Source: a virus
Lineage: Duplodnaviria; Caudoviricetes
DNA length: 64,000 nucleotides
Direction: 5' to 3' (one strand)
IMG/VR virus record: IMGVR_UViG_3300031993_000044
Location: 22,990 to 86,989 of that record
Below the pieces are notes generated by a model that was not told the origin of the DNA, did not search any database, and saw nothing but the letters and a program-made list of their open reading frames with translations. Positions 29,605 through 35,024 of the stretch are shown here, piece by piece. Position 1 is the stretch's first letter, and every line of letters starts with the position of its first letter. The translations under genes were made by a program, and so were the position numbers.

Positions 29605-30369
29605 ATGTTAGGAGCAATTATCGGCGACATTGTAGGGTCGCGTTTCGAATTTCACAACACAGACAAGTACAACTTTGGAAAGCTGTTCACAAAGCAGTGC
29701 GACTTTACGGACGACACAATTTGCACTGTGGCAATAGCACACGCAATACTTAAGGCTGACTACAACTACAAGGACGCGCTGCTGTATTGGTGCAGAAAGT
29801 ACCCTAACCCGATGGGCAGTTACGGCGGCAGCTTTGCACGCTGGATAAACAGCGAAGACCCACAACCGTACAACAGCTTCGGTAACGGTGCTGCAATGCG
29901 TGTCAGCCCTGTTGCGTTTACATGGAGCACGTCGGCAGACGTTATACGCGAAGCGATAGCAACAGCAAGCGTGTCACACAATCACCCGGAGGGCATTAAG
30001 GGAGCAATGGCAACTGCACTTGCAACGTTTGCGCTGCGCAAGAGCCATAACAAGGAAACTGCGATACGCATAGAACAGCTTTTCTACGACTTGAACGCTA
30101 AATATACACGCGGACGCTTTGACGAGACTTGTCAGGGAACTGTACCCGTTGCGCTTCGCATCATTTCAGAGAGCTGCGACTTTGAGGACGCTATAAGAAT
30201 GGCAATGGCCTGGGGCGGCGACAGTGACACGTTGGGCGCAATAGTAGGCGGCATGGCAGAAGCTTTGTACGGCATACCCAGCGACATTAAAGCTGCTGCA
30301 ATGGAGTACCTGCCAGCAGATATGAGGATAGTTATTAGAGAGTTTTACGACGCTTTTGTGCATGAATAA
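29605..30369 (+). CDS. ADP-ribosylglycohydrolase (DraG/ARH family)
   Basis: GAIIGDIVGS, TDDT, GNGAAMRVSP, SHNHPEG and GGDSDTLGAIVGGMAEA motifs. Confidence 0.92.
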   Translation: MLGAIIGDIVGSRFEFHNTDKYNFGKLFTKQCDFTDDTICTVAIAHAILKADYNYKDALLYWCRKYPNPMGSYGGSFARWINSEDPQPYNSFGNGAAMRVSPVAFTWSTSADVIREAIATASVSHNHPEGIKGAMATALATFALRKSHNKETAIRIEQLFYDLNAKYTRGRFDETCQGTVPVALRIISESCDFEDAIRMAMAWGGDSDTLGAIVGGMAEALYGIPSDIKAAAMEYLPADMRIVIREFYDAFVHE

Positions 30370-30619
30370 AGTACTGTACATCTATCTTACGGGCGTGCTG
30401 CTTGCATTCATATTGCTTGCAGCTGGTATTGAAAGGCTTTACAAGAAAGGCACGTTCCTGTTTGTTCCTAAAGAAGCTGCATGGCTTCTCTCGTCGCTGT
30501 CTTGGGTGCTTGTAGCTATCCTTGCATGGGGCTGGCTGCTGGACTTTCTTACTTACATCTACGTGTACATTATATTCAAGTATAAAGTATGGCAAAACAA
30601 AAAGAATGACACAACATGA
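30362..30619 (+). CDS. Small two-TM membrane protein
   Basis: Two long hydrophobic stretches. Confidence 0.6.
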   Translation: MNKVLYIYLTGVLLAFILLAAGIERLYKKGTFLFVPKEAAWLLSSLSWVLVAILAWGWLLDFLTYIYVYIIFKYKVWQNKKNDTT

Positions 30620-34200: not shown

Positions 34201-35024
34201 GGCTTCGGGTGCTGCGGACTGCCCCAAATGCGTATGCCAAGCACAAACGGCTCACTGCGCCAGCGTGCGTTGTTGCCGTAGTGGTACGACATGTTGATTT
34301 CGCTGCGCATGAGCCTGAATGAGTTTTTGTAGCTGCTTCTGTAAACGCCCTGTCCGACTTCTTCCAGCGGTGCAACGACAAAGCGCACGTTGCCGTCCTC
34401 GTCAATGACGCGCTTGTGCCAAACTGCAACGTCCTTCTTCTTTCCTCCCGTCGTAATAACGGTGTGGTGATAGCGTCGATACATCATGTCCGGCTCTTTG
34501 AGCTGGTCGCGCACACGCAGGGAAAGCTCCGCTGCACTCGTACCCTTTGAAAGCCCGTCCTTAATGACGTTGCTCATTGCAATCTCAAACTCGCTTTTCG
34601 TCTGCTGTGCGTAGTTCCAAATGTTCTGCGAAAGGTTAAGCCCCTGTGGGTTGTTCATGCGCCTGGCAGTGAAAGCGTTTATAGCCATCCTGCGCACGCG
34701 CTCAATGGCTGAATCGTTGAGTATGGTGTAGCCGTGCAGGTTCTTTGCATCCTGCCCGAAAGCAAGCGCAACGCCCGACGCGATGCCCTGTTTCGTCAGT
34801 AGTAAGTTGTCCTGCACGTACTGATTGAAGATGTCACGCAGTCTGTACTGAAGCTCGGGGAAATTGTCAAACATAAACAGCGGGTTATCTGCAAGCTTTT
34901 CATCCACGCTTATGCCAAGCTCCGAAAGTTCCTTGATGAACTTTGCGTAAAGCTTGCCCAAACGCTTGTTATATGCTCCGAAAAGCATTGTCAGTTCCTC
35001 TTGCTGCTGCTTGTTTGATGCCAT
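31203..35024 (-). CDS. MuF-like minor head protein fused to a papain-like toxin domain and a C-terminal ADP-ribosyltransferase
   Basis: N-terminal MuF (DICDEL.G.YPKDF.F.GFHPQCMC); middle NCQ/GHTF/YFYDPQ triad; C-terminal Y..IN.PLR, LQRG, YWSAG and ESEILFQRG.Y.V motifs. Follows the portal gene. Confidence 0.85.
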   Translation of the reverse strand: MASNKQQQEELTMLFGAYNKRLGKLYAKFIKELSELGISVDEKLADNPLFMFDNFPELQYRLRDIFNQYVQDNLLLTKQGIASGVALAFGQDAKNLHGYTILNDSAIERVRRMAINAFTARRMNNPQGLNLSQNIWNYAQQTKSEFEIAMSNVIKDGLSKGTSAAELSLRVRDQLKEPDMMYRRYHHTVITTGGKKKDVAVWHKRVIDEDGNVRFVVAPLEEVGQGVYRSSYKNSFRLMRSEINMSYHYGNNARWRSEPFVLGIRIWGSPQHPKPDICDELWGVYPKDFDFAGFHPQCMCASAPVLCSKQERDEIIRRKQKGEDISNYVSPNAVTQVPDAFKEYVHRNRDKILAAGERGTLAYVFRDNPKYWRFEFNKDEQQKMGVYVQPKHVKTEAEKADIQRRWDERRRRMAIEARHAKRDDAAVQERWNRYQLERVQRAISNADIDAGTALTGRLNALYSAIKQGDIYAVQQAYAKAMRGVEIQKKWDELVWAGFSDELKRNLKQLAREIGIAKGRPMTHEQANTRHVNPQYREKYVRNAQGKLVLNPKWKKDYSINCQTTAPVYMLRRFGFNIEAKGNDGTIYKKILTKGYLDVWKKTDGTPLRMADIQKSTKVSVMYGWLQKQPDGVYQIGVTWKGAKSGHTFNYVKENGKGYFYDPQNNKRFDTLEAFKEYSSNVSPKYGYEFFRIDNLHVNVSTLSKIVKKSEFVDPIQLAREQRHAARDAKAIQNAWNERRKQNALKFNTAKNVIAAAQKHGYKELQPLISDLQDKLLTYRLNDAQQLTKQLAQQIAGINKAVKSFKYVQDAKAHLKDVSLADLQAVEDAVDKKVQYVLSHTSDYAGQMKKYSFEAYDFLGANMNGIQQKFPNTWKISQEAYIKLYKEAKLNMDWQVVMQQYNQLKAFTTASPKYQQHIDNIEALLSLKDDLALAQQAVKDAEKYKKSLEASAKYRNKKKGGAASTSTTSSKLGGVITDTELMQMAGQLADKRLTLWQKGGLGLTDVERYAYNDILLAVQKGDINTVRLKLKSLGEDLTDAYSRGRKDLAMWAKDTKEADDKLRPKSGEVWRNASQKERDAIYGYTEEYHNINEPLRGLTYYGPAAKAKRGLTRIPLIESIIDKSTYDFDMWLQRGDDKVGLKKFGLTNYATASDADIYALVGKTGTEGAYWSAGVAKGKGFDSKPVIFNIYAPRGTKGMYCEPFSAFGRGAGASWDGISPQAAFGYESEILFQRGTTYRVTKVEKNGGKWYIDVEIVDQSPFPFPYVGGYPYPY

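Follow-up and report, generated by a model that had tools for sequence, protein, structure and literature searches.

Does a phage head protein that carries two toxin-like domains act as a double toxin, and which of the genes facing it protect the cell that makes it? The question is raised by a locus in the window, a stretch of 64,000 nucleotides (nt) that corresponds to bases 22990-86989 of IMGVR_UViG_3300031993_000044, an 86,989-bp IMG/VR virus record with direct terminal repeats. The original prediction described there a MuF head protein of 1273 amino acids (aa) with a papain-like triad and an R-S-E ADP-ribosyltransferase (ART), and a facing operon that encodes an ADP-ribosylhydrolase (ARH), a protein with two transmembrane segments (2-TM) and two small proteins. 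Every residue and coordinate named for the MuF protein was found to be correct, with Pfam and PHROG in agreement, and the operon is real and tightly packed. Homology places the locus in the Bxa/BAH/Bsi family. It is not a new system, and neither its components nor the notion of an internal PL1 domain is new to the literature. We consider it fairly probable that this is a Bxa-family locus in which the ART is opposed by BAH-like and Bsi-like antidotes, and in which the papain-like PL1 domain is a second active module checked by a 72-aa protein. The main features are:

31203-35024, - strand: MuF polymorphic toxin, 1273 aa, the last gene of a terL-portal-MuF run
33825-35024, - strand: MuF/minor-head N-terminal domain, residues ~1-400, with PHROG matches
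32880-33551, - strand: Tox-PL1/Gln_amidase papain-like module (PF15644), residues ~492-715, an insertion relative to ART-only relatives
31290-31844, - strand: R-S-ExE ART domain, residues 1061-1245 (PF03496, E 3.7e-19)
29605-30369, + strand: ARH, a BAH homologue (PF03747, E 7e-34; phrog_6572, E 1e-68)
30356-30619, + strand: 87-aa 2-TM protein, hydropathy peaks at ~residues 1-29 and 40-73
30616-30834, + strand: 72-aa protein (S72 family), candidate PL1 immunity protein or inhibitor, from co-occurrence with PL1
30837-31187, + strand: 116-aa Bsi homologue, predicted to confer immunity by binding the ART; 43% identity to Bsi (E 2e-24)
30845-32145, no strand assigned: exchangeable unit of toxin and immunity, comprising the Bsi-like gene and the 3' part of the MuF gene that encodes the ART (residues ~960-1273)

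Bxa (Brown et al. 2021), from a Bacteroides stercoris prophage, is a protein of 869 aa with MuF, linker and ART parts; it modifies arginine by ADP-ribosylation and is lethal to E. coli (Alexei et al., JBC 2024, PMC11699363). BAH is an ARH1-like hydrolase with the catalytic residue E15 that reverses the Bxa modification, and Bsi binds at the ART active site of Bxa (PMC11699363). We recovered the Bxa locus from a 4.0-Mb Bacteroidaceae genome, in which the 869-aa open reading frame (ORF) contains R679, R691, R719, S757, E818 and E820, and a neighboring 110-aa ORF contains all 11 Bsi residues listed in Tables S1-S2 of PMC11699363. The window and the Bxa locus have in common the MuF N-terminus, the helical linker, the C-terminal R-S-ExE ART and the placement of the toxin gene in the head module, together with a convergent cassette that encodes an ARH1-like hydrolase with E15 and has a Bsi-family gene by the toxin 3' end. 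In the Bxa locus BAH is followed by Bsi, both pointing towards the Bxa gene, and all ART-only relatives examined are equally convergent. Immunity genes on the strand opposite the toxin, which the original prediction had called unusual, are therefore the common arrangement among these loci. The two loci differ in that Bxa has no PL1 module, whereas the window protein carries a PL1 module of ~225 aa between linker repeats. The window cassette also has two additional genes, for the 2-TM and 72-aa proteins, and lacks a homologue of the helix-turn-helix-like RS09440.

The 1273-aa protein consists of three parts, a MuF-type N-terminus, the internal PL1 domain and the C-terminal ART. It matched PHROG 16625, annotated as 'Bxa ADP-ribosyl transferase', with an E value of 1.8e-106, and also phrog_7625 (E 1.7e-38), phrog_115 (E 2e-22) and phrog_1657, among several head-morphogenesis and minor-head PHROGs; Pfam PF04233 was not detected in the protein at E < 0.1. 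The N-terminus is 32% identical to residues 46-411 of Bxa, and the ratio of nonsynonymous to synonymous substitution rates (dN/dS) of this domain is 0.05. In the ART, the motifs LQRG, YWSAG and ESE were found at residues 1131, 1169 and 1226-1228 (31341-31349 for ESE). Across 13 homologues R1133 is invariant, and S1171, E1226 and E1228 are nearly so. The domain is 36% identical to the Bxa ART, with E818 and E820 of Bxa aligned with ESE, and the nearest solved structures are C3 exoenzymes.

The hydrolase encoded on the facing strand is 62% identical over 251 aa to the BAH of the recovered Bxa locus, and its N-terminus, MLGAIIGDIVGSRFEF, holds the catalytic E15. Its PDB relatives are DraG, ARH3, ARH1 and 6dre, a chain deposited as ADP-ribosyl-(dinitrogen reductase) hydrolase. 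The score of the protein was 42.8 bits against the NCBIfam Tri1 equivalog NF041672 (cut-off 490) and 56 against TIGR02662 for DraG (cut-off 337). Because the score for the Tri1 model is far under the cut-off, the hydrolase is not a Tri1 orthologue; judged by these models, it falls within the same superfamily as Tri1 and DraG but in another family. The Tre1/Tri1 pair of Serratia proteamaculans, which had been named as the precedent, likewise sets an arginine-directed ART against an ADP-ribosylarginine hydrolase. However, Tre1/Tri1 depends on delivery by a type VI secretion system and on a single immunity protein that both binds and hydrolyses, and the direct precedent is Bxa. The Apk2 MuF toxins, with the Aph1 hydrolase and Tis1 (PMC10083569, PMC12226406), follow the same logic of a product-reversing enzyme plus a binding inhibitor, but differ in their (p)ppApp synthesis, their Firmicutes hosts and the lack of a second catalytic module. 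By homology, the window hydrolase is predicted to be an enzymatic immunity protein that removes ADP-ribose from arginine.

Comparison with the close relative L001 connected the ART with the 116-aa gene. The DNA of the window and L001 is 94-96% identical at 29084-30844 and at 32146-37000, while no blastn match was found across 30845-32145. In L001 the R-S-ExE ART is divergent and the Bsi-like gene is another one, with the hydrolase gene and the 72-aa gene retained in place. The 1.3-kb replacement is an exchange of a toxin-immunity module, as expected of polymorphic toxins. Since the ART and the 116-aa gene are exchanged together, the 116-aa gene is tied to the ART and, by exclusion, the 72-aa gene to PL1. 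The N85-R86 pair of Bsi is kept in the 116-aa protein as N84-R85.

PL1 was recognized by PF15644 (Gln_amidase) at residues 559-665 with an E value of 4.7e-13 and a score of 50.6 bits, against a cut-off of 24.1 bits. The NC-H-DxQ signature is intact (N560-C561, H646 and D661-P662-Q663), with C561 encoded by TGC at 33342-33344, H646 by CAC at 33087-33089 and D661 by GAC at 33042-33044. In the two PL1 alignments examined, the Cys and His are invariant and the Asp is either kept or swapped for Glu. The ART-only relatives P0012-P0021, which are 49-63% identical in the MuF part, align solely to residues 1-~490 and ~716-1273, and the PL1 module is therefore a ~225-residue insert. A linker repeat, RHAxRDxxA[IV]QxxW, flanks the insert on either side, at residues 418-431 (33732-33773) and 722-735 (32820-32861); its copies are separated by 76 residues in P0012 and P0018, which are ART-only. 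This repeat may serve as a recombination site for module gain.

An AlphaFold check of the domain had been proposed along with the original prediction. The AlphaFold 2 model of PL1 is confident, with a predicted local distance difference test (pLDDT) score of 87.5 and a predicted template modeling (pTM) score of 0.83, and the modeled fold is papain-like. VIA-align matched the model to 8brf (Z 10.2, root mean square deviation [rmsd] 3.5, 123 aligned) and SpvD (Z 9.9, rmsd 3.6, 158 aligned) and, at lower scores, to the OspI deamidase (Z 7.3), AvrPphB (Z 6.6) and Cif/CHBP (~5), and also to Mcf. Foldseek returned papain-like toxins at E 1e-3 to 1e-2. The fold neighbors include both deamidases (OspI is a Ubc13 deamidase) and proteases (AvrPphB, C39 peptidases and staphopain). 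We take the family name Gln_amidase to be an annotation, with deamidase or protease chemistry being predicted. The dN/dS of PL1 relative to L002 is 0.13, which indicates purifying selection. The intact signature, the purifying selection and the confident papain-like model suggested that the PL1 domain is functional.

To survey gene neighborhoods, a check that had likewise been proposed at the outset, we used 80 MuF loci from GTDB genomes and 80 PL1 loci from IMG/VR, plus close relatives. ORFs were called and searched with hidden Markov models (HMMs) seeded from window proteins, a threshold of 70% identity was used to group toxin genes into clusters, and the 72-aa family was counted when it occurred within 2.5 kb of the toxin 3' end. 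The 72-aa family tracked PL1 (near 14 of the 19 clusters with PL1 and 2 of the 57 without it; Fisher 1.7e-9), while the Bsi family tracked the ART (beside 18 of 23 ART clusters and 3 of 53 others; 2.8e-10). These counts are indicative only, since ascertainment differed between the two sets of loci, the HMMs had been refined by iteration on these very data, and the clusters are not independent in phylogenetic terms. Neither the Bxa locus nor any of the 16 ART-only loci contained a member of the 72-aa family; the family adjoins C-terminal PL1 toxins in MuF and non-MuF contexts alike. Together with the homology to the characterized Bxa, BAH and Bsi and the module swap, the co-occurrence supports the earlier proposal that the hydrolase is an antidote and that the small proteins are candidate immunity genes.

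The MuF-Tox-PL1 'glutamine deaminase' toxins (PMC3482391; JBC 2024 Fig. 5, S8 and S9) carry the same NC-H-DxQ domain on a BxaNT-like MuF, and a small ORF of the 72-aa family is adjacent in L019, L045, L057 and many IMG/VR loci. In these toxins PL1 is the sole catalytic domain and lies at or near the C-terminus, whereas in the window protein it is internal and is followed by 558 residues that include the ART. A small ORF predicted to confer immunity accompanies each of the BxaNT homologues with a fused glutamine deaminase or Apk2-like domain (PMC11699363).

The AlphaFold 2 model of the 72-aa protein (pLDDT 91.5) consists of a single helix packed on a four-stranded sheet, and a Foldseek search found no significant PDB match to it. 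The protein had no match in Pfam, PHROG or NCBIfam, and the ESM Atlas gave unnamed clusters only, with scores below 0.9. VIA-align matches to cystatin/PepSY-like structures had Z scores of 4-6, within the chance range, and a cystatin relationship is not claimed. We infer the pairing with PL1 and regard the 72-aa protein as a candidate cognate immunity protein or inhibitor of this domain.

The tandem architecture is found well outside the window. MuF-PL1-ART proteins occur in the window clade (P0007-P0011), in a Sodaliphilus metagenome-assembled genome (MAG; L010), in Prevotella/Bacteroidaceae MAGs (L020/L021) and in the IMG/VR contigs L101-L106, as well as among the representatives P0126 and P0130. 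The reverse order, MuF-ART-PL1, was found in IMG/VR at L113:4018-6744 and L143:3724-6678, with the ART at ~390-570 and Tox-PL1 at the C-terminus, both supported by Pfam. Tandem toxin domains, which had been presented as a rarity, thus recur in several diverged lineages and in both orders. Among the nearest 150 PL1 representatives at 50% identity, 9 also carry an ART and 5 have an unassigned tail of at least 300 residues; PL1 forms the extreme C-terminus in ~105. In Zhang et al. 2012 (PMC3482391), Tox-PL1 is defined by NC-H-DxQ, and MuF fusions are placed in prophage head modules. A tandem or dual PL1+ART MuF protein was not found mentioned in a text search of Jamet et al. 2017 (PMC5576092) or in PMC11699363.

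The four cassette genes are tightly packed on the + strand, with overlapping or abutting reading frames, and converge on the MuF gene. The control elements around them and the genes of the head module are:

29393-29432, + strand: terminator-like hairpin ending the upstream + strand genes (-16.8 kcal/mol, z -3.7)
29552-29559, + strand: -7-type Bacteroidota promoter box (TAnnTTTG), TAATTTTG, 53 nt before the ARH ATG in a 215-nt gap
31167-31198, both strands: hairpin of 11-13 bp between the convergent genes, a possible bidirectional terminator
36929-38536, - strand: large terminase gene terL, upstream of the portal gene
35459-36925, - strand: portal gene, directly upstream of the MuF gene
1-13699, - strand: capsid and tail genes

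The hairpin at 29393-29432 is conserved in L001, L002, L004 and L006, and because it closes the upstream genes, the cassette is probably its own transcription unit. The box is kept at -53 in the same four loci, in keeping with the earlier claim of an own -7 box, but no -33 TTTG at canonical spacing was seen upstream of it. The box is a further difference from B. stercoris, since it was not seen in the Bxa locus. The hairpin at 31167-31198 extends into the final codons of the 116-aa gene and folds stably on either strand (-18.7 kcal/mol and z -3.1 on the + strand; -21.1 kcal/mol and z -5.5 on the - strand), as expected of the shared bidirectional terminator that had been claimed, but a U-tract is present on the + strand only. 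A cassette promoter and terminator are plausible predictions from these elements.

The 87-aa 2-TM protein had no match in Pfam, PHROG or NCBIfam, and its gene is confined to the closest relatives, L001-L004. Its role is perhaps superinfection exclusion or that of an orphan immunity protein. In L002 and L004 other tiny ORFs accompany the gene.

The phage is an 87-kb temperate Bacteroidales phage of the gut, and its host is probably Prevotella-like. The window contains an integrase gene (44412-45578, - strand) and a CI-like repressor gene (45844-46467, - strand). The head module is split, with a 16.5-kb + strand block between terL-portal-MuF (31203-38536) and the capsid and tail genes. This block (14698-31187) contains a Holliday-junction resolvase gene and many genes without assigned function, and its last four genes are the cassette. 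Relatives likewise carry an opposite-strand block immediately after the MuF gene. The gap of ~430 nt between the portal and MuF genes (35025-35458), which is also seen in L001, L002 and L004, contains no convincing ORF and no Rfam match, and Rfam gave no match anywhere in 28500-36000. Upstream of the terminase gene lies a 7-deazaguanine-type DNA modification gene set (39347-43790), whose members are a GTP cyclohydrolase (FolE-like), a QueE-like radical S-adenosylmethionine enzyme, a tRNA-guanine-transglycosylase-like protein and a ParB-like protein.

Taken as a Bxa-family system with a second module, the locus would work as follows. The terL-portal-MuF late operon would end in a head-associated MuF protein, whose C3-like R-S-ExE domain would most likely ADP-ribosylate arginines promiscuously, like Bxa. 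The producing cell would be shielded in two ways, with the BAH-like hydrolase stripping the modification and the Bsi-like protein blocking the ART active site. PL1 would be a second active module, a deamidase or thiol hydrolase acting in trans and held in check by the 72-aa protein, and it may in addition cleave the polypeptide. To a more specific form of this proposal we give somewhat under an even chance: PL1 and the arginine ART would be two independent warheads, each with its own binding inhibitor (the 72-aa and the 116-aa protein, respectively), with the hydrolase reversing the product, and the modules would have been gained or swapped separately at linker repeats. If true, the locus would be a natural MuF system of two toxins and three antidotes, and papain-like toxins would have a new class of inhibitors in the 72-aa family.

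Besides the limits of the neighborhood survey, several observations speak against an active PL1 module guarded by the 72-aa protein alongside a Bsi-guarded ART. PL1 is not at the extreme C-terminus but ends at ~residue 715 of 1273, an internal position that weakens the claim of PL1 as a warhead but not its membership in the domain family. No 72-aa homologue was detected in the dual lineage L020/L021, which has a 1715-aa PL1+ART protein, or in the L113 group with the ART before PL1. The 72-aa family also occurs beside the MuF genes of L035 and L070, whose C-terminal domain shows no PL1 homology and may be another thiol-enzyme toxin that shares the 72-aa inhibitor family. On the side of the ART, K89 and E92 of Bsi, which are needed for neutralization, are replaced by Y88 and S91 in the 116-aa protein, a further difference from the Bxa locus; with these residues replaced, the specificity of the 116-aa protein was probably re-tuned to the divergent ART. 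In addition, Zhang et al. 2012 (PMC3482391) proposes that internal PL1 domains are releasing peptidases and lists 'papain-like' as a protease of MuF systems.

The C-terminal domain of L035 (7938-9659) and L070 (8001-10250) has the motifs GSCxSLAFA ... HAAxVR and no Pfam match. It appeared Cys/His-like by eye, and a divergent PL1 was considered but dropped, as neither hhalign nor Pfam gave any similarity to PL1.

The main rival to two warheads, in line with the prediction by Zhang et al. 2012 for internal PL1 domains, is that the internal Tox-PL1 is an auto-processing peptidase that frees the ART from the capsid-bound MuF part, either at head assembly or after delivery, so that the protein would be a single toxin. 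PL1 precedes variable C-terminal domains in many long MuF proteins, and in the window it lies upstream of an ART whose module is exchanged between relatives; the proteases among its fold neighbors also fit. However, PL1 forms the extreme C-terminus, with no cargo behind it, in most of the nearest representatives (~105/150, as above), orders with the ART before PL1 exist, and an immunity-type small gene accompanies PL1, including in three of four independent lineages with PL1 before the ART. Bxa and the ART-only relatives are without PL1, so that any processing there is independent of it, and outside the close clade no cleavage motif proved to be conserved. A double-glycine-like candidate site, KKKGG (YRNKKKGG at the constant/variable junction, residue ~960), was dropped since it is confined to that clade. 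While none of these points is decisive against a purely cis-acting PL1, we consider a releasing peptidase with a single toxin improbable.

The site of action raises two further possibilities. The original prediction held that the virion injects the two-domain effector with the DNA and that lysogens constitutively express the cassette, so that kin are protected and non-lysogens are harmed or reprogrammed. The MuF gene following the portal gene, which is the position where SPP1 gp7-type MuF proteins are encoded, and the cassette with its own conserved promoter-like box and hairpins on both sides are consistent with this model, and the standing hypotheses for MuF toxins are that they are loaded into capsids and injected (PMC5576092, PMC3482391). 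The virion association of MuF toxins had been taken as established, but capsid loading of any MuF toxin is given as a hypothesis, not a result, in PMC5576092, PMC11699363 and PMC3482391. Moreover, the sequence gave no sign of expression in the lysogenic state, the cassette ends the 16.5-kb + strand block and may be co-expressed with it, and Bxa was first linked to host epithelial effects after release, according to the summary in PMC11699363. We therefore regard the full injection model as doubtful.

The main target of the enzymatic modules might instead be the mammalian host once the cell has lysed, as has been reported for Bxa, with the cassette guarding the producer only before release. Bxa ADP-ribosylates epithelial cytoskeletal proteins and triggers inosine release, as summarized in PMC11699363. 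The structural neighbors of PL1 include the eukaryote-targeting effectors OspI, Cif/CHBP, SpvD and AvrPphB, and the related contigs are apparently for the most part from human-gut metagenomes, judged by sample names only. Against this stand the bactericidal activity of Bxa in E. coli (PMC11699363) and the fold matches themselves, which are weak to moderate (Z 5-10) and silent on the target, while the joint exchange of toxin and immunity genes is what inter-bacterial antagonism would be expected to produce. A role mainly in the mammalian host appeared rather unlikely to us.

While the locus does not reveal a new kind of system, it bears on a protein family of some consequence, since Bxa is one of only a handful of proteins from gut phages that have been shown to affect bacteria as well as the mammalian host. 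The locus indicates that the Bxa family is modular, in that one and the same head protein can be extended by another catalytic domain, with a small gene to match, and that the ART end and its Bsi partner are exchanged as a unit between nearly identical phages. Since the Bsi interface residues differ here, these phages provide a natural test set for immunity specificity. They would equally serve as a natural test set for the role of MuF toxins in phage biology and for whether an internal Tox-PL1 is a toxin or a releasing peptidase, a question that dates from 2012.

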